From the NCBI GenBank assembly GCA_021789495.1, contig JAJYJM010000007.1:10230-74229 (forward strand): a stretch of DNA of 64,000 nucleotides, given 5' to 3'. The stretch's first letter is position 1. Every line of letters starts with the position of its first letter. The DNA comes from Nitrospirota bacterium. Lineage in GTDB: Bacteria; Nitrospirota; JACRHJ01. Position numbers and translations under genes: made by a program. Shown here piece by piece: positions 17,266-56,830 of this stretch. The notes beneath the pieces are model-generated. The model was given only the letters and a program-made list of their open reading frames with translations. It did no database searches and was not told the DNA's origin.

Positions 17266-17343
17266 CCTGGATTCCCGATTAAACCGTTCGGGAATAACGG
17301 ACACATTTTTCGGATTCCCGGCTGAATCATTCGGGAATGTCGA
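17266..17343. repeat. Two tandem degenerate copies of the dRS3-like palindromic element (ATTCCCG-N11/12-CGGGAAT) in the rpsE-rpmD spacer
   Basis: CCTGGATTCCCGATTAAACCGTTCGGGAATAACGG and CGGATTCCCGGCTGAATCATTCGGGAATGTCG. Confidence 0.7.
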
Positions 17344-17356
17344 AAAATGAACGCTG

Positions 17357-17366
17357 CCCCCCCCCC
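17357..17366. repeat. C10 homopolymer tract
   Basis: Ten consecutive C read directly, in the rpsE-rpmD spacer. Confidence 0.9.
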
Positions 17367-17434
17367 GGCCTATCTCCCATGAAACTCAGACCCATCTATC
17401 TTGCGCAATCGCCCTTATACAACTCCGGCCCTCT

Positions 17435-17935
17435 TTATGATGCTATCTCTTCCACAGCCTTGCCGCGAAGCCTGGCAACCTGCTCCAGGTTCCTTAGCTG
17501 CTTCAACCCCTCAAGAGTGGCCCTCGCCACATTGTGCGGATTGGAACTGCCGAGCGATTTTGACAATATATTGTGAACGCCCGCCACCTCAAGTATGGCC
17601 CTGACCGCTCCGCCCGCGATAAGCCCGGTACCTGGAGAAGCGGGTTTCAGGAGTACCTTTGCCGAACCGAAATGCCCCAGTGTCTCGTGCGGGATGGTCG
17701 TTTCCTTGAGCGCCATCTTAACCATGCTCTTTTTTGCGCGCTCGACCGCCTTCTGTATCGCAACAGGCACTTCGACGGCCTTCCCTTTGCCTATGCCGAC
17801 GCTGCCCTCGCCGTCGCCGACTACGACAAGCGCCGAAAAGGAGAACCTTCGCCCGCCTTTGACGACCTTGGCCACCCTGTTTATATGGATAACCTTGTCC
17901 TTGAAACTGGAGCCTTCGGCTTCGTACTTTTCCAA
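17435..17935 (-). CDS. rpsE: Ribosomal protein uS5
   Basis: 166 aa, ...[19 protein letters not shown]...; the ORF start is a TTG. Confidence 0.9.
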
Positions 17936-17946
17936 TTAATTCCTCC

Positions 17947-17981
17947 TGTCAAAAATCAGGCCAGCTTCCCCTCGCCGCGCC
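17947..17981. repeat. Degenerate duplicate of the rplR 3' end (direct repeat of 18029..18063)
   Basis: TGTCAAAAATCAGGCCAGCTTCCCCTCGCCGCGCC versus TGTCAAAAATTCAGACCGGCTTCTCTCGCCGCGTC. Confidence 0.7.
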
Positions 17982-18030
17982 TTTCGGCCATGTTCAGAAG
18001 CCGCCCTGCAACCGCCCTCTTGCCCCCTTG

Positions 18031-18399
18031 TCAAAAATTCAGACCGGCTTCTCTCGCCGCGTCGGCCAGGGCTTTAATCCTTCCGTGAAATATATATCCG
18101 CCCCTGTCGAAAATGACGTCTTTTACGCCCTTTTCAATGGCTTTTTTGGCTACTGCGGCTCCGACCTTCTTCGCCGCGTCTATATTGCCTTTGGACTTCA
18201 GGCCTTCCCTGACCTCTTTGTCGAGTGTGGACGAGGCGGTTATGGTAACGCCTTTTGCGTCGTCTATGACCTGGGCATAGATGTTAGAGGCGCTCCGGAA
18301 TACGTTCAGCCTGGGACGCAAGGCTGTTCCATGAACCTTTTTCCTGATCCTGTCCTGCCTTCTTTGCCTGCCGGCAAGCCTGTCGCTCGTGGAGCCCAT
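18031..18399 (-). CDS. rplR: Ribosomal protein uL18
   Basis: 122-aa L18 match. Confidence 0.95.
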
Positions 18400-18400
18400 G

Positions 18401-18937
18401 TTATTTACCCTTCTTCCCTTCCTTGTGGAGTATTGTCTCTTCGGCGTATTTTATGCCCTTGCCCTTGTAAGGCTCCGGCTTCCGAACCGCGCGGACGTTT
18501 GCGGCTACCTGCCCCAGGAGCTCCTTGTCGATGCTCGAAAGCTTTATGGTGGTCGCCTTGTCTACGGAAGCGGAAACGCCCTTGGGGAGTTCAAAGTTCA
18601 CGGGGTGAGAGAAGCCCATGTTGAGCACAAGGGCGCTGCCCTTCACTTCGGCTTTGTATCCCACGCCGTTTATTTCCAGAACCCTCTCAAAACCCTTTGT
18701 GACGCCGGAGACCATGTTGTTTATCAAGGTCCTGGTCAGCCCGTGGAGAGAGCGGTCTAACCTGTGGTCGGAAGCCCTTTCCACGATGATCAATTTCCCA
18801 TCATGCCGTATCGTCATCTTAGGGTTGAAATCCCTCACGAGTTCACCCTTCGGCCCCTTTACGCGCAGGTTGCTGCCGGAGAGCTTTACCTCAACGCCAG
18901 CCGGTATCTCCACGGGTTTTTTGCCTATCCTCGACAT
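18401..18937 (-). CDS. rplF: Ribosomal protein uL6
   Basis: 178-aa L6 match. Confidence 0.95.
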
Positions 18938-19027
18938 TTTATAACTCCCTCACCGGTTCCATCTATAATAAAGGTGATACGGCTTCTTCCCATTTACTTC
19001 GTTCAGGGCTTCGGCTCACTCGCTCAG

Positions 19028-19080
19028 AATGACAGCACGTTGTCGCATCCCCGCTTTGGCGGGAATGACGGGCGCAATGA
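19028..19080. repeat. Degenerate dRS3-like element in the rpsH-rplF spacer
   Basis: ...AGAATGACAGC...CCCCGCTTTGGCGGGAATGACGGGCGCAATGA shares the GCGGGAATGACGG arm and CGCAATG tail with the 41355 copy. Confidence 0.6.
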
Positions 19081-19145
19081 ATGTGCCTCTACTCTTACTT
19101 TAATCGGCTAATTTATTATACCTCACCCCGGCCCCATCGCCCGGA

Positions 19146-19544
19146 CTACCAGATGTAGCAGAGAATTTCGCCGCCGATATTCTTCTGCCGCGAGTCCCTG
19201 TCCACCATGACGCCTCTCGACGTGGATATGATTGCAACGCCAAGACCGCCCATCACACGGGGGATGTCATCGGCTCCCACATAGACACGGTTGCCGGGAC
19301 GGCTCACCCTCTTCAAGCCGTTTATGACCCTGATCTCGTCTGGGCTGTATTTCATATAGACCCGGACTATCCCCTGCTTGCGGTCCTTGAGAAGCTTGAA
19401 ATTCTTTATATATCCCTCTTCCTTCAGGACGCGGGCCAGTTCCAGTTTCAGGTTGGACGAAGGCACATCCACCTTCTCCTGTTTCGCCAGGTTGGCGTTT
19501 CTGATCCTGGTCAGCATATCAGCAATCGGGTCCGTCATTCCCAT
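19146..19544 (-). CDS. rpsH: Ribosomal protein uS8
   Basis: 132-aa S8 match. Confidence 0.95.
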   Translation of the reverse strand: MGMTDPIADMLTRIRNANLAKQEKVDVPSSNLKLELARVLKEEGYIKNFKLLKDRKQGIVRVYMKYSPDEIRVINGLKRVSRPGNRVYVGADDIPRVMGGLGVAIISTSRGVMVDRDSRQKNIGGEILCYIW

Positions 19545-19650
19545 CTTCCATTGCTCCTTTTTCGATATTTAATAAGACACCCGGAACTTGTCTTTCAGGC
19601 CGGAGGGCTTCCTTCATCTTCCGCCCCCGGTGCCGGCAGCCCGGAGGTCT

Positions 19651-19836
19651 TTACCAGCTCGCCTTTATCACTCCCGGTATCTCGCCCTTCAAGGAAAGCT
19701 CGCGGAAGCATATCCTGCACATTTCGAATTTCCGAAGGAAGCCCCTGGGCCTGCCGCAAATCTTGCAGCGGTTATATCCGCGGGTGGAGAACTTCGGCTC
19801 CCTTTTCTGCTTGGCTATGAGAGATTTCTTTGCCAA
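19651..19836 (-). CDS. rpsN: Ribosomal protein uS14 (type Z, zinc-binding, 61 aa)
   Basis: CKICGRPRG...CRICFRE motifs. Confidence 0.95.
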
Positions 19837-19846
19837 CTTCCTACCT

Positions 19847-19881
19847 CGCTATCAGTTTACGAAAGACATTCAAATGTGGCG
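19847..19881. repeat. Degenerate duplicate of the rplE 3' end (direct repeat of 19914..19949)
   Basis: CGCTATCAGTTTACGAAAGACATTCAAATGTGGCG versus CGCTATCAGTTTCTGAAAGGCATCCCGATATGGCGG. Confidence 0.6.
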
Positions 19882-19918
19882 ATATGTCCGCCTTTGCCGT
19901 GGCAACCCGCCCCCGCTA

Positions 19919-20461
19919 TCAGTTTCTGAAAGGCATCCCGATATGGCGGAGCAGCGCCTTGCCCTCCTCGTCCGTACTGGCGCTGGTTACGATGGAAATA
20001 TCCATCCCATGCACCATCTCTACCTTGTCGTAGTCTATCTCCGGAAATATGAACTGCTCCTTAAGGCCGAGGGTGTAGTTTCCCCTGCCGTCGAAGGCCT
20101 TTCCCGATACGCCCTTGAAATCGCGTATGCGTGGCAGGGCGACGTTCAAGAGTCTGTCGAGGAACTCCCACATGCGGTCCCGCCTGAGGGTTACGGAACA
20201 CCCGACAGACATCCCCTCGCGGAGCTTGAACGCGGCAATGGACTTCTTGGCCTTCTTCACTACGGCCTTCTGGCCAGTTATATCGCCAATCTCCTTCACC
20301 GCCCCATCCATAAGCTTCGGGTTCTGTATTGCCTCGCCCAGGCCCACGTTCACGACAACCTTCACAACCCTTGGGACCTGCATGACGTTCTCGAACCCGA
20401 ATTCCTTCATCAGGGCCGGCGTTATCTCTTTTTCGTATTTTTCCTTGAGCCTTGCCGCCAT
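19919..20461 (-). CDS. rplE: Ribosomal protein uL5
   Basis: Internal ATG gives [22 protein letters not shown]..., preceded by a GGAGG SD. Confidence 0.95.
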
Positions 20462-20480
20462 TTTATAAAAAACCTCCAGT

Positions 20481-20801
20481 TCAAACCTTGTCCATGGGGC
20501 TGCCGCACTTCTTGCAGACGCGAACCTTCTTCTCGCCCTCGAAGCTGTGGGAAACCCTGGTGTTTTTGCCGCACTTGGGACAAACGAGCATGACATTTGA
20601 AACATGAAGCGGGGCTTCCTTCTCTATTATCCCGCCCTGCCGGTTGGTCGAGGTCGGGCGGGTATGCCGCTTGACTATGTTCAGCTTCTCCACGAGCAGG
20701 CGGTCTTCCTTGGAGAGCACCCGGTATACCCTCCCCGTCTTGCCTTTTTCCTTGCCGGCGATGACCATCACCGTATCGTTTTTCTTTATATTTACGCCCA
20801 T
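20481..20801 (-). CDS. rplX: Ribosomal protein uL24 with a C-terminal CxxC...CxxC motif
   Basis: KOW N-terminus ([15 protein letters not shown]), and a C-terminal CPKCG...CKKCG. Confidence 0.9.
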
Positions 20802-20814
20802 CCTGATAGCCCCC

Positions 20815-21183
20815 TTATAGCACTTCCGGCGCCAGTGAAATTATCTTCATAAAGTTCTTCCAACGGAGCTCTCTTGCGACCGGACCGAATATGCGGGTGC
20901 CAATGGGCTCCCTCTGGTTATTTATCAAGACCGCAGCGTTCTTGTCGAACTTTATATACGAACCGTCGTTCCTTCTGACTTCCTTCGACGTCCTCACAAC
21001 GACCGCTTTCGCCACCTTACCCTTTTTGGCGGTGCCTTCGGGAATGGCCTCCTTTATGGAGACGATGATGATGTCCCCGACCGTGGCATAGTGCCTCCGG
21101 GTTCCGCCGATCACTTTTATGCACATTACCTTTTTGGCGCCGGAATTGTCCGCAACATCCAACATAGTCTGGACCTGGACCAT
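20815..21183 (-). CDS. rplN: Ribosomal protein uL14
   Basis: 122-aa L14 match. Confidence 0.95.
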
Positions 21184-21205
21184 GATTAACCTCTCCCTTC
21201 AGGCC

Positions 21206-21454
21206 TTATCCGGCCTTTTCTATTACCTCTACGACTTCAAATCGTTTATCCTTGGAAAGCGGCCTGGTCTCGGCCACCCTGACGGTATCGCCGATTGCGC
21301 ACTCGTTCTTTTCGTCATGGGCCTTCAAGCGGGCTACGCGGCTTACTATCTTTTTGTAGACCGGGTGCGGCACTCTCCTCGTGACCCTGACGACGACCGT
21401 CTTGTCCATCTTGTCGCTTACGACTTCTCCAACGAATGTCTTATTTTCGGCCAT
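21206..21454 (-). CDS. rpsQ: Ribosomal protein uS17
   Basis: 82-aa S17 match. Confidence 0.95.
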
Positions 21455-21504
21455 CAGCCTTATCCTCCGGGGATAATCCCCACTATCTTAATCCAGTATT
21501 TTAA

Positions 21505-21538
21505 ATCCCTGGATTCCCGCTTTCGCGGGAATGACGTC
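21505..21538. repeat. dRS3-like palindromic element (core ATTCCCGCTTTCGCGGGAAT) in the rpmC-rpsQ spacer
   Basis: CCCTGGATTCCCGCTTTCGCGGGAATGACGTC; the core at 21513..21532 is a perfect 8-bp inverted repeat with a 4-nt loop. Confidence 0.85.
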
Positions 21539-21562
21539 TTTATAAGCTTCGCGCCTCCGGGA

Positions 21563-21757
21563 TCAGCCCCCGATTTCCTTCTCTTTAAGAACGGTCTTTA
21601 TTCGCGCAATGTCCCTTTTTACGTCGCGTATGCGCATCGGGTTTTCTATGTCGCCCATAGCAAGCTGGAAACGCAGGTTGAACCGCTCCTTGTCCAGGTC
21701 GGAAAGCTTCGACTTAAGCTCCTCCGGCGAAAGGTCTTTTATTTCGGATGCCTTCAC
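21563..21757 (-). CDS. rpmC: Ribosomal protein uL29
   Basis: 64-aa L29 match. Confidence 0.95.
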
Positions 21758-22173
21758 AGCAGTCCTCCTTCCCTGGACACGAACCGGGTAGCGACCGGAA
21801 GCTTGTGCGCGGCGAGCCTGAGCGCCTCTCTCGCCACTTCTTCCGGCACGCCCGCCATTTCGTATATTATACGGCCAGGCTTCACGACGGATACCCAGTA
21901 TTCCGGAGCGCCTTTCCCCTTGCCCATCCTCGTCTCGGCGGGCTTTTTGGTTATGGGCTTGTCCGGGAATATCCGGATCCAGATCTTACCGCCCCTCTTT
22001 ACGTGGCGGGTCATGGCGATACGGGCGGCCTCTATCTGGGCGCTCGTCACCCAGCCAGGCTCGAGGGCCTTCAGGCCGAACTCGCCGAAGCTTATATCCC
22101 CGCCTCGCCAGGCCTTCCCGTTCATGGTGCCTTTCTGCTTCTTCCTGTATTTGACTTTCTTCGGCGCTAACAT
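21754..22173 (-). CDS. rplP: Ribosomal protein uL16
   Basis: 139-aa L16 match. Confidence 0.95.
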
Positions 22174-22255
22174 TTACAACTCCCGATTATGTCCGGTGAA
22201 AATCTCGTGTGTCAGCCATCTGCGAATTATGTTACACCCGGTGCCCACCGACCGG

Positions 22256-22897
22256 TTATACCGCCGCCGCTTCGCCCAGGATGTCGCCCTTGTATATCCA
22301 GACCTTGACGCCTATCTGTCCGTATGTCGTCTTGGCCTCGGCAAAACCGTAGTCTATGTCCGCCCTTATGGTATGAAGCGGCACTCTGCCCTCCCTGTAC
22401 CACTCGGAGCGGGCTATTTCGGCGCCCGCCAGTCGCCCGGCACATGCTATTTTTATCCCCTGCGCTCCGAACCGAAGCGAAGAGGTTACGGACTTTTTCA
22501 TCGCGCGACGGAAGGCGATCCTGCGTTCAAGCTGAAGGGCTATATTCTCCGCCACGAGCTGGGCATCCATCTCCGGCTTTCTTATTTCCATGATATTTAT
22601 ATAGACCTGCTTGCCGGTCTGGTCCTCAAGCTCTTTTTTGAGCTTGTCCACCTCGGCGCCTTTTTTGCCGATAATGATGCCGGGGCGTGCGGTGTGGATA
22701 TTGACTTTTATCCTGCTGCCCGCGCGCTCGACGTCTATCTTGCCGACCCCCGCGTGAAATAGCTTCGCCTTAACGACCTTGCGGAGCCTTAAGTCTTCGT
22801 GCAGGTACTCGCCATATTCCTTTCTGGCAAACCAGCGCGAACTCCAGGTCTTTATGACGCCAAGCCTGTAACCGACTGGATGGACTTTCTGGCCCAA
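22256..22897 (-). CDS. rpsC: Ribosomal protein uS3
   Basis: 213-aa S3 with a KH domain. Confidence 0.95.
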
Positions 22898-22926
22898 ACG
22901 CTCACCTCCGATTATTCTCTTTTGCC

Positions 22927-23259
22927 TTATTCATCGCCCAGCACCAGGGTAATATGGCTGGAACGCTTCCGTATGATGTTGGCCCTGCCCATTGCACGGG
23001 GCATAACCCTCTTCAAGACCGGTCCCTGGTCCACGAATGCCGCTTTCACTTTGAGCCTGTCCACGTCCGATACATTTTTCTGTTCCGCATTGGCTATGGC
23101 GGATTTCAGCAGTTTCTCGACTACGCGGGACGCATGCTGGGGCATGAACTTAAGCATATTCATGGCCTCACCGACCTTCCTGCCCCGTATGACGTCAATT
23201 ACAAGCCGCGCCTTTCTTGGCGTGACTCTTATAAACTTTGCCTTTGCAGTGGCTTCCAT
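22927..23259 (-). CDS. rplV: Ribosomal protein uL22
   Basis: 110-aa L22 match. Confidence 0.95.
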
Positions 23260-23274
23260 CGGAATCCGACCCCT

Positions 23275-23577
23275 TTAACCTTGTTTTGCCGTCCCCGGCC
23301 CCGTCGTTGTTTTCTTCTCGGTCCCGCCGTGGCCCTTGAACTGCCTCGTGGGCGCAAATTCGCCCAGTTTATGGCCAATCATATTCTCGGTGACATAAAC
23401 CGGGATAAATTTTTTCCCGTTATGCACGGCCAGCGTATGGCCTATGAACTCCGGAACGACCATGCTGCTCCTGGACCAGGTCTTAAAGATTTTCTTTTCC
23501 CCGGCCTCGTTCATCTTTGCTACCTTAGTCAGCAGGCTTTCCTGGACGTAAGGCCCCTTGTTTACCGATCTTGGCAC
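23275..23577 (-). CDS. rpsS: Ribosomal protein uS19
   Basis: 100-aa S19 match. Confidence 0.95.
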
Positions 23578-23607
23578 AGCGCTCCTCCTGAAAAATCAGC
23601 CCTTAAA

Positions 23608-24426
23608 CTACTTCCTCTTCTTGACGATAAACTTGTCCGCATTCCTGCTCTTCCTGGTCTTGACGCCTTCCGGCTTGCCCCAGGGCGAGCATGGCGGCCT
23701 TCCGCCGGACGACCGGCCTTCTCCGCCGCCGAGGGGATGGTCTACCGGGTTCATCGCGACGCCCCTGACCTTCGGTCTCTTGCCGAGCCAACGGGAACGT
23801 CCGGCCTTGCCCAGGGAGATGTTCTCGTGGTCGATGTTGCTGACCTGTCCGATGGACGCCTTGCAGTCCATAAGAACCATCCGCACCTCGCCGGACGGGA
23901 GCCGAAGCTGAGCGTATTTGCCTTCCTTGGCCATGAGCTGAGCATACGAACCCGCGCTCTTTACCATCTGTCCGCCGCCGCCGACTCTCATCTCAACGTT
24001 ATGAACCTGAGTCCCAAAAGGGATGTTGCGAAGCGGCAGGCAGTTGCCCGGAAGTATGTCCGCCTCCGGCCCCGACATTACATTGTCGCCTGCCTTAAGC
24101 CCCACAGGCGCAATTATATAGCGCTTTTCACCGTCCGCATAATGCAAAAGCGCAATCCTGGAACTCCTGTTCGGGTCGTACTCTATACTCGCCACCTTTG
24201 CGGGTATCCCGTCCTTATCCCGCTTGAAGTCGATTATCCTGTAGGCCCGCTTGGAGCCGCCGCCGCGCCTGCGGACCGTTATCCTGCCGTAGGAGTTCCT
24301 GCCCGCGCTCTTGGAATAGACCTTTACAAGGCCCTTTTCAGGCTCTTTTTTGGTGATGTCCTCGAAGGTGTCCACGGTCTGGAAACGCCTTGCCGGAGAG
24401 GTCGGTTTATATGATTTTATAGCCAT
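23608..24426 (-). CDS. rplB: Ribosomal protein uL2
   Basis: 272-aa L2 match. Confidence 0.95.
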
Positions 24427-24501
24427 TTAACGTATGCCCCCAAAGCCTGTTCCACGCCCAAAACACTATAGCGCCGCCGGCGCCGCTCCCACTTTGCCCG
24501 C

Positions 24502-24795
24502 TTATTTCACGCCTTCGAGGTACTCGACGGTCTGGCCTTCCTTCAGCGTGATAACCGCCTTTTTCCAGTCCGAACGCACGCCCTGGCGCGCTCCCAGACG
24601 CTTTCTTTTACCCTTGAAAACCATGGTGCGCACTTCGTCCACCTTCACCTTGAAGACGGCTTCGACCGCGTTCTTTATCTCTATTTTGTTTGCATCGGGA
24701 GAAACCTGAAGCACTATCTTGTTCTGGCTCTCCTTCAGCTTTGAACCCTTTTCTGTAATCAGGGGTTTCTTTATAATTTCGTAGATGCCTTTCAT
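24502..24795 (-). CDS. rplW: Ribosomal protein uL23
   Basis: Internal ATG gives MKGIYEIIKKPLITEK...; ATGA overlap with the rplD stop. Confidence 0.9.
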   Translation of the reverse strand: MKGIYEIIKKPLITEKGSKLKESQNKIVLQVSPDANKIEIKNAVEAVFKVKVDEVRTMVFKGKRKRLGARQGVRSDWKKAVITLKEGQTVEYLEGVK

Positions 24796-25415: not shown

Positions 25416-25483
25416 CCTTGTATCTCCCTGGAGCTGCTTTTATTTTTTAGCTTCACGAACAGGCCAACGCCAAAAGTCACTGG

Positions 25484-25510
25484 GTTCCAGCCTTCGCGGG
25501 AATGACGGGG
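25484..25510. repeat. Degenerate half-copy of the dRS3-like element in the rplC-rplD spacer
   Basis: ...CCAGCCTTCGCGGGAATGACGGGG carries the GCGGGAATGACGG arm. Confidence 0.5.
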
Positions 25511-25543
25511 TTTATAAATCAGGCCCGCCCCCATTCCGGCCCC

Positions 25544-26161
25544 TTATATTTTGTTAACGATAACTATCCCGCCGGGCGAACCCGGTACTGCGCCTTTGAC
25601 CAGCAGGATATTATCCTGTGCCTTTATATCGACCACTTCCAGGCCGCGGGTGGTAACACTCCCGTTGCCCATATGGCCGGGAAGCCTCTTGTTCTTCCAG
25701 ACCCTGGACGGCCATGCCGATGACCCTATGCCTCCCGGTTCCCTGTGGAACATCGAGCCGTGGGTCGCGCGCCCGCCCTTGAAGTGGTGGCGCACGATGA
25801 CGCCCTGGAAGCCCTTGCCCCTTGACGTACCCATTACGGATACCTTGTCGCCCCTTGCGAATATTTCCACGGTCACTTTTGAACCCGGCTCCATATCGGA
25901 TGTGTCGCCATGAAATTCCCGGAGGTGCCTGTAGGACGCAGTGCCCGCCTTCTTGAAATGACCTGTCATGGGCTTGTTTGCCTTGCTCTCCCTTATCTCA
26001 AGGAAACCTATCTGCACTGCATCGTAGCCGTCCGACGGGACCGTCTTTTTCTGGACTACCGCGCACGGCCCGGCCTCTATTACCGTAACAGGCGTAACGC
26101 GTCCATCGTCCGTGAATATCTGGGTCATCCCCAGCTTCTTTCCTATTATGCCGCTTATCAT
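25544..26161 (-). CDS. rplC: Ribosomal protein uL3
   Basis: 205-aa L3 match. Confidence 0.95.
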
Positions 26162-26463: not shown

Positions 26464-26470
26464 GTCAACC

Positions 26471-27670
26471 TCACTCTATTATATCCGCGACGACGCCGGC
26501 GCCGACGGTTCTGCCGCCTTCGCGTATGGCGAAACGGAGTTCCTTCTCGCACGCTATCGGCGTGATAAGATCCACTTCCATCGAAACATTATCGCCCGGC
26601 ATCACCATCTCCACTCCATCGGGAAGCTTCACGACTCCCGTCACGTCCGTCGTCCGGAAGTAGAACTGAGGACGATACCCGTTGAAGAAAGGAGTGTGCC
26701 TGCCGCCCTCTTCCTTCGTCAGGATATACGCCTCCGCCTTGAACTTCGTGTGCGGCGTGATCGACTTGGGCTTCGCGAGAACCATACCGCGCTCAACCTC
26801 TTCCTTCTTCGTGCCGCGAAGAAGAACCCCAATGTTGTCGCCCGCCTGGCCCTGGTCGAGAAGCTTCCGGAACATCTCCACGCCCGTAACGATCGTCTTC
26901 TGCGTGTCCCGTATGCCGACTATCTCGACCTCGTCGCCGACCTTCACAATGCCGCGCTCAACCCTGCCCGTTACGACAGTGCCGCGTCCCGAAATCGTGA
27001 ACACGTCCTCCACAGGCATCAAAAACGGCTTATCTATCGCGCGCTCCGGCGTCGGAATGTAGCTGTCAACCGCGTCCATCAGATCCCAGATGCACTTATA
27101 CTCAGCCGCGGCAGGGTCCGTGGACGCAGACTCAAGAGCCTTCAGCGCGCTCCCCTTCACGATGGGTATGTCGTCGCCCGGAAACTCATACTTGCTTAAG
27201 AGCTCCCTAAGCTCAAGCTCCACAAGCTCGAGTAACTCAGGGTCGTCCACCATGTCAACCTTGTTCATGAACACCACTATATATGGAACGCCGACCTGAC
27301 GCGCAAGAAGTATGTGCTCCCGCGTCTGCGGCATCGGACCGTCCGCAGCAGAAACAACCAGTATCGCGCCGTCCATCTGCGCCGCGCCCGTTATCATGTT
27401 CTTCACGTAGTCCGCATGGCCGGGGCAGTCGACGTGAGCATAGTGACGGTTCCCCGTCTCATACTCCACGTGAGCAGTCGCTATCGTTATGCCGCGCTCA
27501 CGCTCCTCAGGAGCCTTGTCTATCTGGTCGAATGCCGTAAACTTCGCCTGACCCTTCGTCGCAAGCGTCTTCGTTATCGCCGCCGTCAACGTCGTCTTAC
27601 CGTGATCTACATGACCTATCGTCCCAACATTGACATGCGGCTTCTTCCTCTCAAACTTCTCCTTTGCCAT
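26471..27670 (-). CDS. tuf: Elongation factor Tu (copy 1)
   Basis: 399 aa, [27 protein letters not shown]...; ATG start verified. Confidence 0.98.
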
Positions 27671-40321: not shown

Positions 40322-40421
40322 CCTGTAAACCCCCTTTCCAAGTCGTCGACAGGGGAATCTTTTATTTTACCCTCTCGTCTCGGCGGGACGGCCGGTCGGC
40401 CAATTAAGGGATCGGGACAAA

Positions 40422-40460
40422 ACCTTAATTCCTGGATTCCCGCTTTCGCGGGAATGACGG
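40422..40460. repeat. dRS3-like palindromic element in the rplA-rplJ spacer
   Basis: CCTTAATTCCTGGATTCCCGCTTTCGCGGGAATGACGG; perfect core at 40436..40455. Confidence 0.85.
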
Positions 40461-40543
40461 TCTGTGGTTTACTCTCCCCTGCCCCTCCTGCTGTCTTCGA
40501 CTCCTTAGTAAATACCGCCCCCGAAAGCGGGGCGGAAATTTGA

Positions 40544-41354: not shown

Positions 41355-41400
41355 CCAAATTCCTGGATACCCGCCTTCGCGGGAATGACGGACGCAATGG
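41355..41400. repeat. dRS3-like palindromic element (variant core ATACCCGCCTTCGCGGGAAT) in the rplK-rplA spacer
   Basis: CCAAATTCCTGGATACCCGCCTTCGCGGGAATGACGGACGCAATGG. Confidence 0.8.
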
Positions 41401-41432
41401 ATTGCGCCGCCGCATTACACTTTCCCCGCCCT

Positions 41433-43100: not shown

Positions 43101-43110
43101 GATGTCCCCT

Positions 43111-44310
43111 TTACTCTATTATATCCGCGACGACGCCGGCGCCGACGGTTCTGCCGCCTTCGCGTATGGCGAAACGGAGTTCCTTCTCGCACGCTATCGG
43201 CGTGATAAGATCCACTTCCATCGAAACATTATCGCCCGGCATCACCATCTCCACTCCATCGGGAAGCTTCACGACTCCCGTCACGTCCGTCGTCCGGAAG
43301 TAGAACTGAGGACGATACCCGTTGAAGAAAGGAGTGTGCCTGCCGCCCTCTTCCTTCGTCAGGATATACGCCTCCGCCTTGAACTTCGTGTGCGGCGTGA
43401 TCGACTTGGGCTTCGCGAGAACCATACCGCGCTCAACCTCTTCCTTCTTCGTGCCGCGAAGAAGAACCCCAATGTTGTCGCCCGCCTGGCCCTGGTCGAG
43501 AAGCTTCCGGAACATCTCCACGCCCGTAACGATCGTCTTCTGCGTGTCCCGTATGCCGACTATCTCGACCTCGTCGCCGACCTTCACAATGCCGCGCTCA
43601 ACCCTGCCCGTTACGACAGTGCCGCGTCCCGAAATCGTGAACACGTCCTCCACAGGCATCAAAAACGGCTTATCTATCGCGCGCTCCGGCGTCGGAATGT
43701 AGCTGTCAACCGCGTCCATCAGATCCCAGATGCACTTATACTCAGCCGCGGCAGGGTCCGTGGACGCAGACTCAAGAGCCTTCAGCGCGCTCCCCTTCAC
43801 GATGGGTATGTCGTCGCCCGGAAACTCATACTTGCTTAAGAGCTCCCTAAGCTCAAGCTCCACAAGCTCGAGTAACTCAGGGTCGTCCACCATGTCAACC
43901 TTGTTCATGAACACCACTATATATGGAACGCCGACCTGACGCGCAAGAAGTATGTGCTCCCGCGTCTGCGGCATCGGACCGTCCGCAGCAGAAACAACCA
44001 GTATCGCGCCGTCCATCTGCGCCGCGCCCGTTATCATGTTCTTCACGTAGTCCGCATGGCCGGGGCAGTCGACGTGAGCATAGTGACGGTTCCCCGTCTC
44101 ATACTCCACGTGAGCAGTCGCTATCGTTATGCCGCGCTCACGCTCCTCAGGAGCCTTGTCTATCTGGTCGAATGCCGTAAACTTCGCCTGACCCTTCGTC
44201 GCAAGCGTCTTCGTTATCGCCGCCGTCAACGTCGTCTTACCGTGATCTACATGACCTATCGTCCCAACATTGACATGCGGCTTCTTCCTCTCAAACTTCT
44301 CCTTTGCCAT
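43111..44310 (-). CDS. tuf: Elongation factor Tu (copy 2; CDS identical to copy 1)
   Basis: The 399-aa product is identical to the 26471..27670 product. The flanks diverge exactly at the start and stop codons. Confidence 0.98.
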
Positions 44311-44411
44311 GCTCACCCCCTGAAAAGGAAATACACGAAGGTGCAAACCCTCCCCGCGTCCGGTTCAATGCCGTTTTCGCCGGAAGACTTTCCCCTCGCC
44401 TGACTGTTTCC

Positions 44412-46329: not shown

Positions 46330-46357
46330 CCGTCATTCCCGCGAAAGCGGGAACCCG
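46330..46357. repeat. dRS3-like palindromic element (opposite orientation) upstream of the tRNA operon
   Basis: CCCGTCATTCCCGCGAAAGCGGGAACCC. Confidence 0.8.
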
Positions 46358-46375
46358 GCGGTTTTATATATTAAA

Positions 46376-46401
46376 GGGCCGACACGCGGGTCGGCCCCTA
46401 C
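46376..46401. repeat. Hairpin repeat family 2 copy (GGGCCGACACGCGGGTCGGCCCCTAC)
   Basis: Near-identical to 12893..12918; sits 19 bp from the dRS3-like copy. Confidence 0.7.
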
Positions 46402-46518
46402 GAAAATCATCGGGACCCGTTCAGAGGCGTCCGGGGAATTTCGATATGATTTACTTATAACACCGGGCCGAACGCCAATAGTAAATCTAATCGGTCGGGG
46501 AAGTTCATTGTCAATAGC

Positions 46519-46544
46519 AATTCCCGATTGCATTCGGAAACCGC
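46519..46544. repeat. Possible degenerate dRS3-like copy (ATTCCCG-ATTGCATT-CGGAAA)
   Basis: Weak match to the split-palindrome variant seen at 17266. Confidence 0.3.
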
Positions 46545-49773: not shown

Positions 49774-50960
49774 TATTCTTCGCCGCCGGACGGCTGACCC
49801 TCAGGGCCGGCTTCGGATTTGACCGCCGCGAGAGGCGCGGAAGGCGCGGGCCTTTCAACCGGCAACCGGGCTGATATGCTCTCTCCTTCGCTATCGGGCG
49901 TCCGGTCGCCGCCGGTAGACCGGCCTCCGCCGCCGGCCACCACCTCGGCTATCTGTTCCTGCACCCTCGGCGCTTCTCCCGTCCTCCTTGGGCGGCGCCT
50001 GCGGCGGCTCTTTTTCTTGAAGGGCGCCGCCTGCGCATCCTGCCCGGCGGACTGAGGCCGGTCTATCGGCACCGTCTCCTGGGGGAGGGCTACGGCAGTA
50101 TCGCGCTTTTTCAAGGTCTGGGCCTTCATCCGCTCGACGCGCTCCATCCTCGCCATGCGGGCATGTCTCTCCTGCACCGTCTCGGCGGTTAAGTGTTCCA
50201 CTTCTTCCCTTATCCTCGAAAGGGCCTCAGGCTTTGGCGGCCTGAGCTGCCTTTTCTCGTGGCGCGGGGGCTTATCCTGCCTCTGTCTCTCCGGCCACGG
50301 CCTGTCCTTTTCAGCCGCCGGAGCCTCCTGAAGCCCAAGCTTCTGCTCAAGACGGCTTATACTCTTCTGCATCCTGACAAGGGCCTCGTTCAGCGGGTCG
50401 GGCATGTGGACGTGGTCGAGCATGGAGGCTTCCATCATCTTCTCGCCGTGAATCTTCACTACCCTCCCCGGAACTCCGACTACAGTGGAATGGGGCGGGA
50501 CGGACTTCAGCACGACGGCGTTCGCGCCTATTTTGACGTGGTCTCCAATGGTAATCGCGCCCAGAATCTTTGCGCCCGTGCCCACGACTACGTGATTCCC
50601 AAGCGTCGGGTGGCGCTTGCCGCGCTCCTTGCCCGTGCCGCCGAGGGTTACGCCCTGGAATATCACGACGTTCTCGCCTATCTCCGTCGTCTCGCCGATT
50701 ACGACGCCCATGCCGTGGTCTATGAAGAAGCTCTTGCCGATCTTCGCTGCGGGATGAATCTCGATGCCCGTAAAGAACCTTGTAGCCTGACTGAGCGCCC
50801 GCGCGAAAAACGGCATGCCCATCCTGTGCAGCCGGTGGGCGATTCTGTGCATGAGTATCGCGTGGAAGCCGGCGTAAGTAAAGATTACTTCAAGCCTGCT
50901 CGTGGCGGCAGGGTCCATCTCGAAGACGGCCCTGAAATCCGCCCTGACATTATCGAACAT
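49773..50960 (-). CDS. cysE: Serine O-acetyltransferase with an approximately 220-aa charged low-complexity C-terminal extension
   Basis: N-terminal 170 aa with hexapeptide-repeat SAT (…[20 protein letters not shown]…); the in-frame tail is rich in R/E/K/Q/P. Confidence 0.85.
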
Positions 50961-50971
50961 TTTTTCCTCTT

Positions 50972-51460
50972 TTATTCCGATTCCATCAGGGTGCAGACCG
51001 CAAGCGCGGCGATGCCCTCGCCCCTGCCTTCGGGCCCAAGGCCTTCGGTGGTGGTGGCCTTTATGTTCACCCTGTCGCCGGTTATTCCCAGGTCCTCCGC
51101 CAGGTGTACCCTCATGGCGGGTATATGCGGGGCCAGCTTCGGAGCCTGCGCGACGATTATGGAATCAACGTTGTTTACTTTAAAATGCTTTCCCGCGAGC
51201 AGCCCTGCGACATTGCGCAGAAGTTCCCTGCTCGAAATCCCCTTGTAGGCCGGGTCGGTATCCGGGAAATTCGCCCCGATGTCCGGAAGACCCGCGGCCC
51301 CCAGGAGCGCGTCCATTACGGCGTGGATAAGGACGTCCGCGTCCGAGTGGCCGAGAAGTCCCTTGCCGTACGGGATCTCGACGCCGCCCAGAATCAGTTT
51401 TCGCCCCTCCACGAGCCTGTGGACGTCATAGCCGTTGCCTATTCTGACCCCCGGCCTCAT
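50972..51460 (-). CDS. ispF: 2-C-methyl-D-erythritol 2,4-cyclodiphosphate synthase
   Basis: …GNGYDVHRL…GHSDADV… motifs. Confidence 0.95.
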
Positions 51461-52287
51461 TTTTCGCAGCCCGCCTTCCCCGCCGCCCTAACCTCCGCCC
51501 CGGCCAGCCCGGCAAGGATGGCCTCTGCCAGTACCATGTCCTCCGGGGTGGTAATCTTGATATTGGCGTACGAGCCTGCGACAACCCTGACGGAACCGCC
51601 GTACCTCTCCACCAGCGAGGCCTCGTCGGTCCCGTAAAAACCGTCCGCGTATGCCTTCCTGAAGGCTTCGGCAATTACCCTGTACGGAAACGCCTGGGGA
51701 GTCTGGATGTGCCAGAGAAACCGCCTGTCCAGCGTCCTACGGACTAGGCGGTCCGGGCCGACCTCCTTCAGGGTATCCTTCGCGGGGACGGCGAGGACTG
51801 CGCCGTCGCACCCGTCAAGGGCAATTATGAGGGCCGAAACCATCTCGCGGGTCACGAACGGGCGGACGCCGTCGTGAACCATGACCCAGTCGCCGGGAGG
51901 CTCCATGGCCATCAGCCCGTTCCTGACCGAGTCCTGCCGCTCCCTTCCGCCGGGGACTACCCGCCTTACCTTCCTGAGTCCCTGGCCGTCCACGCACATC
52001 TCAAGGCATTCCTCCAGTTCCGGTTCCGGGACAATCGGGATTACCTCGCAGACCTCCGGCATGTTCTCGAAGCGCCTGAGCGTATGCGCGAGGACGGGCA
52101 GGCCGTTCAAGAGCAGGAACTGTTTCTTTATTCTCCCGCCCATACGACTGCCGGAACCCGCCGCCGGGACAAGCACCGTAACCGACTTCGGCGCGGGCTT
52201 CGGCCTCCCTGCCCCCTTTGCCGCCGTCGCCCCGTCTGCTCCCTTTGTCCCAGGCGCCGGTCTGCCGGCATCAGCTCGCGTTGACAA
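51457..52287 (-). CDS. ispD: 2-C-methyl-D-erythritol 4-phosphate cytidylyltransferase
   Basis: …[14 protein letters not shown]…; about 35-aa N-terminal extension, start uncertain. Confidence 0.9.
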
Positions 52288-53302
52288 CCTGGTATTCCTC
52301 TTTCTCGGTCTCTTCCTTGAGCCTTGTGAATATCATCCGCCCCGCGGTCGTCTGGAGCACCGACGTGACCGCCACGTCAACGGTCTTGCCGATGTGCTTC
52401 CTGCCGTTCTCCACGACAATCATCGTGCCGTCGTCCAAGTATCCCACGCCCTGGCCGAATTCCTTGCCTTCCTTAAGAACGAACACCCTCATAAGCTCGC
52501 CCGGCAGGACGACAGGCTTCACGGCGTTTGAAAGCTCGTTGATGTTCAGAACCGTCACGCCCTGGAGCTCCGCCACCTTGTTCAGGTTGAAGTCGTTCGT
52601 TATAATCTTCGCGTTCTTGACCTTCGCAAGCGCCACGAGCTTGGCATCGACCTCCCGTATCTTCGGGAAATCCTCCTCCACCACCCGCACGTCAAGCCCC
52701 GCCGTCTTCTGGATGCGGTGCAGGATGTCCAGCCCCCTCCTGCCCCTGGCCCTCTTCAAGGGGTCCGAGGAGTCAGCGATGTGCTGAAGCTCGTGGAGGA
52801 TGAACTGCGGTATCATAAATACGCCTTCTATGAAGCCGGTCTCGCAGATGTCGGCGATCCTGCCGTCGATTATGACGCTGGTGTCGAGAATCTTGATGTT
52901 CCCGGCCTCAGCCGAGGCCTTGAAGAGACCCATGGTCTTTCTGAAATCGAACTCTATGCCCTTCCTGGCGCCGAAGGCAAGCCCGAAATAGGCGAAGACA
53001 GTATATATGAAGAACCTCGTTATCCCCCCGACGGTGGCCGAAAGGGGCAGATTCTTTATAGGCACGCAGACGAGCGCGGCGAGCATGATGCCGAGGGCGA
53101 GGCCGATGACGGCGCCTGTCAATGCCCTGACCGGCGCCCTCCTTACGGCAAGCTCAAGGACGATGGCCGCCATGCCGACGGCCAGACCTATCCCCGCGCC
53201 AAGGAAGGTATCGCCTCCCAGGTTCGTCATCTGAGAGAATATAAGCTGCCCCATTATCGCTGCGACAGCGAGAAAAACCACCCTTATTACACTGAACATC
53301 AA
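52271..53302 (-). CDS. YacL-like membrane protein with PIN and TRAM domains
   Basis: Four N-terminal TM helices, a PIN (…[12 protein letters not shown]…ITNDFNL…) and a C-terminal TRAM; in the conserved yacL-ispD-ispF position. Confidence 0.8.
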
Positions 53303-53312
53303 AAACCCCTTT

Positions 53313-54800
53313 TTATTCTCCAGGGCTTACCGGGAGCCACAGCTCCGAACCCTGCCTGTTTATAAGCAGAAGCACGGCGGCGTTCTTCTTCAGTTTCCCG
53401 ACCCGGGCATTATAATTCTTTACGTTCTTTATGGTACTTCTGTCTATCTCGGTTATAACGTCGCCTCTCTGGAGGCCGGATTCCTCAGCCACGCTCCCCG
53501 GCCTTACGGAGACGACCGCAACGCCGGTCGCGTCGGACGAAAGCCCAAGCTTGCTTATAAGTTCAGGCGTGAGGTCTTCGACGCTGACTCCTGAGAGAAC
53601 CGTGCTCTTGCCCGCTTCCTCCGGCTTGCCTGCCGCCGCCTCTTCCTTCTTGGGCAGTTCGCCGACGGTCACGGTAATGGTCTCTTTTTTCTTGTCCCGT
53701 ATAATACCGACTTTCACCTTGCTCCCGACGGCGGTCGATGCCGTAAGATTCCTCAGGTGTCCGGAATCCTCCACCTTCCGACCGTTGAATTCCTCGATTA
53801 CGTCGCCCGGCTTGAAGCCCGCCTTCCGGGCCGGGCTGCCCTTGACAACCTCCCCTACAAGCGCGCCTTCGCCCACCGGGACTCCGAACTGCTTTGCCAG
53901 TTCAGGCGTTACGTCCTGCACGGAGACGCCCAGGTAGCCCCTTATGACCTTGCCGGTCTTGATGAGGCTTTCCATGACCTGTTTGGCCATGTCGGACGGC
54001 ACGGCGAAACCTATGCCCTGGTAGCCGCCCGTGCGCGAGTAAATGGCGGTATTGATGCCGACCAGCTCACCCTTAACGTTCACGAGCGCCCCGCCGGAGT
54101 TGCCGGGGTTGATCGCGGCGTCCGTCTGGATGAAGTCCTCGTAGTCCTCGATACCGACGTTTGCGCGTCCGACGGCGGAGATTATCCCCATCGTCACGGA
54201 CTGCGTAAGGCCGAACGGCGAACCTACCGCCATGACCATCTCTCCCGGCCTCAGCTTGTCGGAATTGCCCCAGGTTATGGCAGGGAGGTCTTTCGCGGGG
54301 ATTTTAATCACGGCCACGTCGCTCCTGGAATCCGCGCCGACTACCTTGGCCTTGAACTCGCGCTTGTCCGCAAGGACGACCCTTATCTCGTTTGCGCCCG
54401 CGATTACATGATTGTTGGTGATGATATAGCCGTCCGAGGAGACGATTACGCCGGAACCCAGGCTCCGCTCCTTATACTTATATTCCCGCCCCTCAGGCTC
54501 GTTCGGCTCTCCGAAAAACTTCCTGAAGAACGGGTCCTCGAAGAACGGGTACATCGGGTTTTCTTCCTTGACTGTCTTGGTCGTGGAGATATTTACCACC
54601 GTGGGCGTAACCTGCGCGGCGACGTCCGCCAGGGCGTCCGACATCCGGACGAGGGCCGGAGACGCCTTGAAGGGCTTTTCCTTCTGCGCCCTGCTCAGGT
54701 TCATTATACCGAGACGCGACGAGACTATGAGGCCGGAAACTACGCCGACGGCAACCAGCACGACCACCCACACCCACGTCAACAGTTTTTTGCGGTTCAT
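53313..54800 (-). CDS. htrA: DegP/HtrA-family periplasmic serine protease with two PDZ domains
   Basis: Catalytic H, D, GNSGG motifs; N-terminal TM anchor. Confidence 0.9.
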
Positions 54801-54875
54801 TTTGGAATTACCTCCCGAATCGTTTCTACAAAATTATAACACCCGCTTACCCGGAAGTAAATAAGTTATTGAGTT

Positions 54876-55409
54876 TTACGGAGATTCCGCCCTCGGAGGC
54901 CGCACCCTGAACACCCCGCAGAGGTTCCTGTGACGCCCGTCCAGGTCGAGACCGTAGCCCACGAGGAAGTGGTCGTCCACCGGGAAACCGGTATAGTCCG
55001 GGTTTATTTCCGCTTTCCTTCCGGCGCGCTTGTCCAGGAGTGCGCAGACCTTCAACGTCTTCGGATTTTCGGCCATAAGCCTTTGAATAATAAAGTTTAA
55101 AGTCAGCCCGGTATCCACAATATCCTCCACTATCAGCACGTCTTTCCCCTTTATATCCGCCCTCGGCCAGCACTCCACCTTTACTTCTCCGGAACTCTCG
55201 GTGGAAGAGTAGCTCCTCACCTTCAGGAAATCCACCTCCACGGGCGCCGTAAGTTCCCGGATTAAATCGGAAAAGAAGATAAACGAGCCGTTCAGGACGC
55301 ACAAGGCGAGTATCCCCCGGCCGGCATAATCCCGGTTGATTTCCGCCCCCAGACGCCTCACGGCCTCCGAAATCTCACCGGGAGAAATCACCTCCGATAG
55401 CTCTTCCAT
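54876..55409 (-). CDS. hpt: Hypoxanthine-guanine phosphoribosyltransferase
   Basis: …VLIVEDIVDTGLTL… PRPP-binding motif. Confidence 0.9.
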   Translation of the reverse strand: MEELSEVISPGEISEAVRRLGAEINRDYAGRGILALCVLNGSFIFFSDLIRELTAPVEVDFLKVRSYSSTESSGEVKVECWPRADIKGKDVLIVEDIVDTGLTLNFIIQRLMAENPKTLKVCALLDKRAGRKAEINPDYTGFPVDDHFLVGYGLDLDGRHRNLCGVFRVRPPRAESP

Positions 55410-55518
55410 ACCTCAGCCTGCCGGGCCTCGATTTAAAGAATGGACGCGAACGTAGTCCTGTCCAAATAAATTACCACCATGATTTTCAAGAGTCAAGAAA
55501 AGCGAGATTTCCGGAGAG

Positions 55519-55755
55519 CTATTTCTTGTGGCAGCCGGTGCAGCGAGGGTCAGAGGACATCTGCTCCTTGACGCCGCCGGGGAACTTCTTCTGGAACGGC
55601 CCGTGGCACTTGGGGCAGTCCTTGAACCCAAGGGCTTGGTGCATCAGGACCATCTTCGGATTTTTGCTGTGGCAGGAGTTGCAGGCGACGGACGCCGACG
55701 GGAAAAACATGGCGGAAATGACCAGCGCGAAATATAAAATCCTGTTCCGACTCAT
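55519..55755 (-). CDS. Small periplasmic triheme c-type cytochrome (cytochrome c7-like)
   Basis: Signal peptide (internal ATG at 55755, MSRNRILYFALVISAMFFPSASVA), then CNSCH, CPKCH, CTGCH and a C-terminal ...CHKK. Confidence 0.75.
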   Translation of the reverse strand: MSRNRILYFALVISAMFFPSASVACNSCHSKNPKMVLMHQALGFKDCPKCHGPFQKKFPGGVKEQMSSDPRCTGCHKK

Positions 55756-55872
55756 ACGCGAATTACAGAAAGCCTCTATGTTTTTATAAGCTTCCTGCCC
55801 GCGTTTGTCAATCATAATTATTATGCTCTAATTTATTGACTTCCCCCCGCAAAAAAGTTATAAATCCCCACT

Positions 55873-56781
55873 ATGGAATTATTTCTGGAGCAGATAATCA
55901 ACGGCCTCACGGTGGGTGCGGTATACGCCCTCATCGCGCTCGGATACACGATGGTCTACGGCATCCTTGAGCTTATCAACTTCGCGCACGGCGAGATATA
56001 CATGCTTGGGGCATACCTGGGGATTATCCTGCTTGGCGTCCTTACAGCCACGGGCGTTACGGCGATGAGCCTCCCGCTCTCAATAATCATCACGATAATC
56101 GCCGCCGGAGTAATCTGCGCGGCATACGGCGCGACAATGGAGAAGATAGCATACCGCCCGCTCCGCAACGCCCCGCGACTGGCGCCGCTCATCTCCGCTA
56201 TGGGCATGTCGATATTCCTGCAGAACTACGTCATGCTCACGCAGGGCCCGAACGACAAGGTCTACCCGCAGACGATACCGGTTACCACGTTTACGTTCAT
56301 GGGCGCGGACGTAACGTATATACAGTTATTCATAATCGCCGCGTCCGTAATCCTCATGGCAGCCCTGCATTTCTTCATTATGAAGACGAAGATGGGCAAG
56401 GCCATGCGCGCGACGGCTCTCGACAAGAAGGCCGCCGGCCTGATGGGCATAAACATAGACTCGGTCATATCCGTGACGTTTATCCTCGGATCGTTCCTTG
56501 CGGCTGTGGCGGGGGTGATGGTGGGGATATACTACGGCGTCGTGAACTTCTACATAGGCTACCTCGCGGGCATGAAGGCGTTCACGGCGGCTGTCCTGGG
56601 CGGCATCGGGAACATACCCGGCGCGATGCTCGGCGGATTTGTCCTGGGAATCCTGGAAAGCCTCGGCGCGGGGTATCTCTGGCCGGAATACAAGGACGCG
56701 TTCGCGTTCCTGGTGCTGGTATTGATACTCATCATCCGCCCGCAGGGCCTGCTTGGCGAGCGGATGCCGGACAAGGTATAG
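55873..56781 (+). CDS. livH: Branched-chain amino acid ABC transporter permease (LivH family)
   Basis: 302-aa 8-TM LivH-like. Confidence 0.9.
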   Translation: MELFLEQIINGLTVGAVYALIALGYTMVYGILELINFAHGEIYMLGAYLGIILLGVLTATGVTAMSLPLSIIITIIAAGVICAAYGATMEKIAYRPLRNAPRLAPLISAMGMSIFLQNYVMLTQGPNDKVYPQTIPVTTFTFMGADVTYIQLFIIAASVILMAALHFFIMKTKMGKAMRATALDKKAAGLMGINIDSVISVTFILGSFLAAVAGVMVGIYYGVVNFYIGYLAGMKAFTAAVLGGIGNIPGAMLGGFVLGILESLGAGYLWPEYKDAFAFLVLVLILIIRPQGLLGERMPDKV

Positions 56782-56802
56782 AAGGCATGAACAGGAAAGT
56801 CG

Positions 56803-56830
56803 CTGGATTCCCGCTTTCGCGGGTACGACG
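56803..56830. repeat. dRS3-like palindromic element (variant core ATTCCCGCTTTCGCGGGTAC) in the livH-livM spacer
   Basis: GCTGGATTCCCGCTTTCGCGGGTACGACG. Confidence 0.8.

Follow-up and report, generated by a model that had tools for sequence, protein, structure and literature searches.

Short hairpin repeats in ribosomal-protein operons of a Nitrospirota bacterium probably belong to the Ssn-related motif family

Are the short palindromes found between genes of tightly packed ribosomal-protein operons spreading repeats, or are they regulatory structures kept for their function, and to which known family do they belong? The question is raised by a 64,000-nt stretch of contig JAJYJM010000007.1 from a Nitrospirota bacterium (assembly GCA_021789495.1), called the window below, which carries the str/S10/spc and L11/L10/rpoBC gene clusters on its minus strand and also holds five tRNAs and two tuf copies. 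The original prediction had described there a dispersed palindrome resembling the dRS3 repeat of Neisseria, present at about ten sites in a genome that is not Neisseria. Our analysis retains most of these sites, identifies the palindrome as a dispersed repeat and makes it likely that the repeat is a member of the Ssn-related motif family, to which the oriented form of dRS3 belongs. The genome had also been called high-GC; the G+C content of the window is approximately 55%, which is moderate.

Repeat units in the window

The two stem arms of the palindrome, ATTCCCGC and GCGGGAAT, separated by four nucleotides, occur twice in the window without mismatches and seven times when up to three mismatches are allowed, against 0.72 expected. 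The core had been said to fit the dRS3 pattern ATTCCC-N8-GGGAAT, and it does: five matches with at most one mismatch are found in the window versus 0.31 expected. When the 28-nt oriented unit CGTCATTCCCGCGAAAGCGGGAATCCAG was slid along both strands, seven copies with 0–5 mismatches were identified, while shuffles yield 0.06 matches even if as many as eight mismatches are allowed. An nhmmer profile of the copies recovered the same seven (E from 1e-8 to 5e-12), then two units at 17266–17342, and no further matches in the window. The latter two follow a long-loop variant of the pattern, ATTCCCG-N11-CGGGAAT (two occurrences versus 0.01 expected), and are the two degenerate tandem copies that had been placed at 17266–17343. 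In total there are nine units at eight sites, and every unit is intergenic, in agreement with the original prediction.

A unit is approximately 28–34 nt long and consists of an unpaired CGTC head, an 8-bp stem formed by the two arms, a 4-nt loop and a CCAG(GAATT) tail; the asymmetric head and tail make it oriented. On the minus strand, the extended form reads CCGTCATTCCCGCGAAAGCGGGAATCCAGG. Folded as DNA, the hairpin of the unit has an energy of -9 kcal/mol (z -3.4). Beyond the unit and its short extension, GGAATT, the copies share no homology, and what lies upstream of them is variable. In the long-loop units the heads are CGTT and CGAC, and the tails CCAG and CCGA.

Three independent assemblies of the same strain agree across the region (99.8–99.97% identity, no indels), and the copies can therefore not be artefacts of assembly. 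The best matches of the ribosomal proteins are labelled as Nitrospirota or Nitrospirae metagenome-assembled genomes (MAGs), and identical proteins are encoded on MAG GCA_027340465.1, which is of the same strain.

Assignment to a repeat family

Chenal et al. (2025) reported that about half of the dRS3 copies of Neisseria are part of a longer oriented motif, NTS, CGTCATTCCCGCGMAVGCGGGAATCYRG (PMC11893778). Related motifs, termed Ssn-related motifs (SRMs), occur in many bacteria, where they are associated with, and often flank, SsnA genes; SsnA, a single-domain GIY-YIG nuclease of roughly 94 amino acids, binds the motif only as single-stranded DNA (ssDNA), cuts it a few nucleotides upstream, is inactive on RNA, and is the sole biochemically characterised partner of the motif (PMC11893778). 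Binding and cleavage of this kind are known only from Neisseria and for a few homologues. Di Nocera et al. (2013) had earlier defined CGTC-1 repetitive extragenic palindromic sequences (REPs) by a CGTC tag, an 8-bp stem beginning with AT, a 4-nt loop and a CCA tail, identified them with dRS3, and detected no transposase dedicated to them (PMC3733652).

Two of the window copies agree with the strict NTS consensus in all positions. The degenerate pattern published for finding SRMs, HGTCWY N0-2 YYVSBRH N0-5 WNVSBRG N0-2 RNCYNB (PMC11893778), is passed by five of the seven 28-nt units, compared with 0.51 matches expected from dinucleotide shuffles. The units also have the head, the AT-starting stem, the loop and the tail of CGTC-1 REPs; the two long-loop units (17267–17342) deviate in loop length, and their 11-nt loop lies outside the SRM pattern. 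The idea of a dRS3-like repeat outside Neisseria is thereby made more specific: the unit is the published NTS consensus, that is, oriented dRS3, and fits a CGTC-1 REP. We therefore consider it likely that the window repeats belong to the Ssn-related motif family, comprising NTS and CGTC-1 REPs, and that they are REP-like hairpins recognised by Ssn as ssDNA and passive in transcripts.

The likeness to NTS and SRMs covers the hairpin core and the whole 28-nt consensus, in which the CGTC head and the CCAG tail set the orientation. It extends to the cross-phylum occurrence, to the position next to small GIY-YIG ssn genes in other genomes with the identical motif and, on the scale of the 64-kb window, to the occurrence in several copies (7–9 units against 0.06–0.5 expected), all of them intergenic. 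The window differs in that its copies lie inside ribosomal-protein operons, whereas the published ones cluster around surface-protein genes, in having a long-loop subtype, and in that no ssn gene was found in its 64 kb or in the loci of relatives. Compared with the published CGTC-1 REPs, which are mostly head-to-head dimers, the copies here are single, apart from one head-to-tail pair. The term "REP/MITE-like" used in the original prediction is supported in its first half; "MITE-like" is loose, since the similarity is limited to the 28–34-nt unit, with neither the terminal inverted repeats nor the consistent target duplications of miniature inverted-repeat transposable elements (MITEs).

In Neisseria, dRS3 is also a target of integration and recombination for filamentous prophages and mosaic elements, and the same could hold here, given that the ATTCCC-N8-GGGAAT core is shared and that the host spacers are likewise mosaics with other small palindromes. 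However, no prophage or transposase genes lie beside any copy, the copies are solitary save for the tandem pair, and the arrays typical of the Neisseria intergenic mosaic elements (NIMEs), in which pairs of dRS3 bound units of 50–150 bp, are absent: no repeated units are seen between the copies of this unrelated organism, and no phage genes or prophage junctions adjoin them. A role as integration target is thus hardly credible.

A further possibility is that such palindromes arise by chance or from a bias in coding or composition, and two sequences in the window seem to be of this kind. At 14070–14082 there is an exact 13-nt half-site, CGTCATTCCCGCC, within methionine aminopeptidase coding sequence (the KAGMTI stretch on the other strand); as relatives carry the same stretch as coding sequence of this enzyme, the half-site is a chance match. 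The sequence at 46519–46544, which had been counted as a degenerate copy, has neither the CGTC head nor the CCAG tail, folds weakly (z -1.55) and was missed by the profile search; we dropped it from the count for these reasons, and it is probably a weak palindrome that arose by chance. Of the approximately ten sites claimed, the eight described above stand. For their nine units chance is excluded by the shuffles: seven full units against 0.06 expected, the excess of SRM matches, and the intergenic location of all units leave this explanation with practically no probability.

Locations of the copies

Five of the seven 28-nt units are in ribosomal-protein operons, on the minus strand and in the sense orientation. 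Two of them are canonical, without mismatches: one at 21509–21536 in the spacer between rpmC (L29) and rpsQ (S17), and one at 40432–40459 between rplA (L1) and rplJ (L10), where it occupies the variable central part of the spacer; the blocks on either side of this part are conserved in relatives. The unit at 41363–41390, CGTCATTCCCGCGAAGGCGGGTATCCAG, located between rplK (L11) and rplA (L1), has two mismatches, and a small palindrome, GGCGCAATCCATTGCGTC, abuts its 5' end. Three mismatches are found in the unit at 25480–25507, CGTCATTCCCGCGAAGGCTGGAACCCAG, between rplC (L3) and rplD (L4), and five in the degenerate unit at 19043–19070, CGTCATTCCCGCCAAAGCGGGGATGCGA, between rpsH (S8) and rplF (L6).

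The long-loop units form a tandem pair, also on the minus strand and sense, the first at 17310–17342 (CGACATTCCCG-AATGATTCAGC-CGGGAATCCGA) and the second at 17267–17299 (CGTTATTCCCG-AACGGTTTAAT-CGGGAATCCAG). This pair lies between rpsE (S5) and rpmD (L30), not next to the L15 gene.

The two remaining units, with two mismatches each, are outside ribosomal-protein operons, and both are antisense to transcription. One, CGTCATTCCCGCGAAAGCGGGAACCCGG, lies at 46331–46358 on the plus strand, between a SpoU methylase gene and a tRNA-Thr gene, both of which are on the minus strand; this is the copy described before, at 46330–46357, as having the opposite orientation, and indeed all other units are on the minus strand. 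The other, CGTCGTACCCGCGAAAGCGGGAATCCAG, at 56803–56830 on the minus strand, separates two branched-chain amino-acid permease genes of the plus strand.

The same spacers in related genomes

The original prediction suggested orthologous spacers as a means of distinguishing a spreading element from a conserved regulatory structure. We fetched the orthologous operons from related MAGs via the L1 and L5 proteins. Three MAGs are represented by a pair of loci each: GCA_021784575.1 by L211 (L5 98% identical to that of the window) and L124 (L1 94%), GCA_027351365.1 by L212 (L5 97%) and L304 (L1 95%), and GCA_027328825.1 by L213 (L5 96%) and L126 (L1 92%). In addition, the loci L214 and L215 (L5 92% and 90%) give the S10/spc spacers only, and the loci L128 and L129 (L1 84% and 81%) give the L11/L1 and L1/L10 spacers only.

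The L3/L4 spacer, 128 nt long in the window, is only 21, 22 and 23 nt long in L211, L212 and L213, and 19 and 22 nt in L214 and L215, and none of these five has a copy; the unit at 25480–25507 is inside an insertion of approximately 103–106 nt found, in comparison with the five related MAGs, only in this strain. In the L29/S17 spacer the copy is shared by the window and L211, at the same place, and is absent from L212, L213, L214 and L215 (19 nt in the latter two). The S8/L6 spacer has a copy in the window, L211 and L212, the two orthologous copies carrying further point changes, and none in L213, L214 and L215; in the more distant relatives this spacer is long (126–137 nt) though element-free. 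The long-loop pair between S5 and L30 is shared by the window and L212 and is missing from L211, L213, L214 and L215, with spacers of 60 and 11 nt in the last two. In L212, the place of the unit at 17267–17299 is taken by CGTCATTCCCGAACGGTTTAATCGGGAATCCAGG, and the tandem pair in a related MAG takes the canonical CGTCATTCCCG...CGGGAATCCAGG form. Both the L11/L1 and the L1/L10 spacers have copies in the window, degenerate ones in L126, and none in L124, L304, L128 and L129. Conversely, L213 has a copy between the S3 and L16 genes with no counterpart in the window.

In the more distant relatives (L5 90–92%), no element is present at any of the four S10/spc junctions, and the spacers are tight except for S8/L6. 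Still further away, a metagenome scan with L6 gave relatives at 60% identity or less, whose 806 kb of this operon served as a negative control and contain no copies. Where orthologous copies exist, point changes break the pairing and no compensating changes are seen; such uncompensated loss of pairing is expected from decay and not from structural selection. The patchy mixture of filled, degenerate and empty spacers among the relatives, with none filled in more distant ones, shows that close relatives acquire the repeat, let it decay and lose it, and that it is thus a dispersed repeat and not a conserved regulatory structure.

Distribution of the motif and of Ssn-type genes

To our assignment we can add the distribution of the exact 28-mer, scanned in one genome per species with two loop variants allowed. 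At least 120 genome stretches are among the matches listed, from alpha-, beta- and gamma-proteobacteria, Dehalococcoidia, Planctomycetota, Nitrospirota, Thermodesulfobacteriota, Gemmatimonadota, Peribacteria and others. A further 86 stretches are on viral or proviral contigs (IMG/VR; loci L218–L297), and in approximately seven viral contigs an Ssn-like GIY-YIG open reading frame (ORF) adjoins the motif. These contigs may be vehicles for spread between lineages, or may represent host flanks of prophage calls.

ORFs of 96–97 codons near the motif in other genomes encode GIY-YIG proteins of PF01541, and at two loci (L053 and L054) the motif is present on both sides of such an ORF. The family of Ssn-like proteins is large, with at least 7,990 members at E<1e-10. 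One homologue, labelled Nitrospiraceae and located on a 3.8-Mb chromosome (L216), has a copy of the motif 9 nt past its stop codon. The published pairing of Ssn and motif is thus reproduced with the exact 28-mer in other genomes, including within Nitrospirota.

At this Nitrospiraceae locus (9165–13699 of L216), the gene of the Ssn homologue shares an overlap with the end of an N6/N4 DNA methylase gene; next come a nucleotidyltransferase pair and then a gene for a ResIII helicase. Its environment is thus a restriction/defence-like island and not a motif-ssn-motif unit.

In itself the find is ordinary, as publications already cover the family and its hairpin, as well as how widely it occurs and which protein is its partner. 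What is new is limited to the host lineage, which is not named in the main texts of the two defining papers (PMC11893778 and PMC3733652), and to the matching pairs of filled and empty sites that related MAGs provide, which could be mined genome-wide for how such hairpins spread. An uncultured Nitrospirota lineage has the strict Neisseria-type consensus without any change, and exact matches are also found in at least eight other phylum-level groups and on viral contigs, which underlines both a strong constraint on the sequence and its ready movement between lineages. The location of the copies also shows that even the cell's most conserved and most densely packed operons tolerate such elements.

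Proposed mechanism and observations against it

For a repeat of the Ssn-related family, the following course of events can be proposed. The CGTC-to-CCAG strand would fold into a hairpin when replication, repair or DNA uptake leaves it single-stranded. A cognate Ssn encoded elsewhere in the genome would then bind the hairpin and cut a few nucleotides upstream, by analogy with Neisseria SsnA in vitro. Spread might be linked to Ssn or proceed by recombination, and the repeats would persist as near-neutral selfish or domesticated DNA. The copies in ribosomal-protein operons would be harmless passengers that are merely co-transcribed, and would be tolerated because the hairpin, having no U-tract, does not terminate transcription: in the terminator test it is followed by CCAGGAATT, and a terminator scan called no unit on the gene strand.

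Several observations do not sit easily with this account. First, all seven units at the six ribosomal-protein operon sites are sense, which would happen by chance in approximately 3% of cases; the orientation may matter locally, a hint to which we give little weight in view of the two antisense copies elsewhere in the window and of the unbiased orientation in other genomes described below. Second, the inserted segments in the L3/L4 and L29/S17 spacers, at approximately 90–105 nt, are far longer than the motif and have unique flanks; those of the L3/L4 insertion (33 and 47 nt) had no second copy in any sequence searched. The moving unit is therefore not simply the 28-mer. Third, a motif regular expression, phmmer with two seeds and a hidden Markov model built from the seeds detected no Ssn or GIY-YIG gene in the 64-kb window, and the loci fetched from the close relatives likewise had none, so that a partner elsewhere in the genome of the window has to be assumed. 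Among SRM-rich genomes, 81% and not all are reported to have such a gene (PMC11893778).

The first of these points is also an argument for the main alternative, in which the copies are cis-regulatory or stabilising elements of ribosomal-protein operons that act at the RNA level (in processing, as a barrier to 3' exonucleases, or as attenuators) and are kept for this function. Its other supports are the GAAA or GAAG loop that the sense strand places on top of a G+C-rich 8-bp stem, and the fact that two copies lie upstream of rplA and rplJ, in spacers resembling leaders. On the other hand, the same spacers are empty or patchily filled in relatives with 90–98% identical L5 and 81–95% identical L1, and the copies decay without compensatory changes. 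Moreover, the 28-mer is identical in sequence across phyla, a constancy that points to recognition of DNA by a protein rather than to an RNA fold. A terminator-like tail is absent, no Rfam family matches the repeat at the gathering or a relaxed threshold, and two copies are antisense to transcription. We also looked at orientation in 120 loci of other genomes and found no bias relative to the coding strand (33/57) or to GC skew (57/127), in a comparison based on crude gene calls that place 74 matches "inside" over-long ORFs. Regulation at the RNA level is thus a rather improbable explanation. A role of the copies as RNA hairpins can be presumed at most; SsnA, the characterised partner of the motif, acts on ssDNA and is inactive on RNA.

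Empty sites and the mode of spread

The L11/L1 spacers of L124 and L304 show what an element-free allele looks like. In both, the small palindrome that abuts the unit of the window is kept and is followed by CCGCCAT or CCGTCAT joined directly to the downstream flank, and the 31-nt hairpin body is absent. In what is a single case, this suggests that a target tag was retained or else that the hairpin body was deleted precisely.

Such a retained tag bears on the possibility that the repeats are REPs mobilised by a REP-associated tyrosine transposase (RAYT) of the IS200/IS605 type, like the GTAG REPs of gamma-proteobacteria and the REPINs formed by them. REPs of this kind share with the window repeats the short hairpin with an unpaired tetranucleotide tag, which is probably recognised as ssDNA; the empty L11/L1 sites keep a CGTCAT tag, as the target logic of IS200/IS605 predicts, and the window has GTAG-tagged REPs (see below), so the genome may encode a RAYT. 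Against this, the tag of the present family is CGTC and not GTAG, the survey that defined CGTC REPs found no dedicated transposase for them (PMC3733652), and no tyrosine transposase is associated with the motif: a RAYT-like gene is absent from the window, and the gene association published for the motif is with Ssn (PMC11893778), a GIY-YIG nuclease family without demonstrated strand-transfer activity. Mobilisation by a RAYT therefore appears very unlikely.

A bolder interpretation stays within the Ssn-related family. The related MAGs might have caught the repeat while it moves. If the pattern of the empty L11/L1 sites is general, CGTC would not belong to the mobile unit but would be a target or cleavage site left behind by a single-strand "peel-and-paste" reaction like that of IS200/IS605, and the sense-only orientation in highly transcribed operons would reflect insertion into exposed ssDNA. 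We regard this as speculative and unlikely; if true, it would provide the first evidence from nature on the route by which Ssn-associated hairpins spread.

Other repeats and genes in the window

Other small palindromes were observed around the units. A second palindromic repeat, GGGCCGACACGCGGKTCGGCCCCTAC, unrelated to the NTS-type unit, is present at 12893–12918 and 46376–46401, with a weaker copy at 12419–12444; its reverse complement begins with GTAG, the tag of RAYT-associated REPs, and the copy at 46376–46401 is 18 nt from the NTS-type unit at 46331–46358. A third palindrome, GGGGCGCAATTCATTGCGCCC, abuts the CGTC head at two loci, at 41391–41408 in the L11/L1 spacer and at 19071–19082 in the S8/L6 spacer, and is found in relatives as well (L124 9841–9861, L304 1818–1838, L211 11407–11427 and L212 7593–7613). 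A fourth, CCCTCTCCCG-CAAG-GGGCGAGGGG, is located at 56839–56862, 9 nt upstream of the unit at 56803–56830; a similar palindrome precedes the degenerate unit in the L11/L1 spacer of L126, and the L11/L1 spacer of L304 is a further site. With these, the spacers are assemblages of several hairpin families, reminiscent of bacterial interspersed mosaic elements (BIMEs) and NIMEs.

The rplA-rplJ spacer (40322–40543) contains the blocks GAGTCGAAGACAGCWGGAGGGGC and CCTTAATTGGC...GGCCGTCCCGCCGAGAC, which are conserved in all relatives and have the look of an L10 leader, while its variable middle holds the NTS-type unit in the window and other insertions in relatives. A search of this spacer against Rfam returned no L10-leader family, even at a relaxed threshold.

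The two tuf genes (26471–27670 and 43111–44346) are 99% identical over their first 300 nt (26464–26763 and 43104–43403), which suggests gene conversion between the two copies. At 60537–61285, two overlapping minus-strand ORFs of 110 and 139 codons have, judged by sequence alone, the appearance of a toxin-antitoxin pair of an MNT nucleotidyltransferase and a HEPN-type (HepT) protein. Finally, a 21-nt unit, GGCGCACTGAACGACCTCGGC, occurs five times head to tail at 3743–3847, inside overlapping long minus-strand ORFs, and, if translated, would give a heptapeptide repeat.

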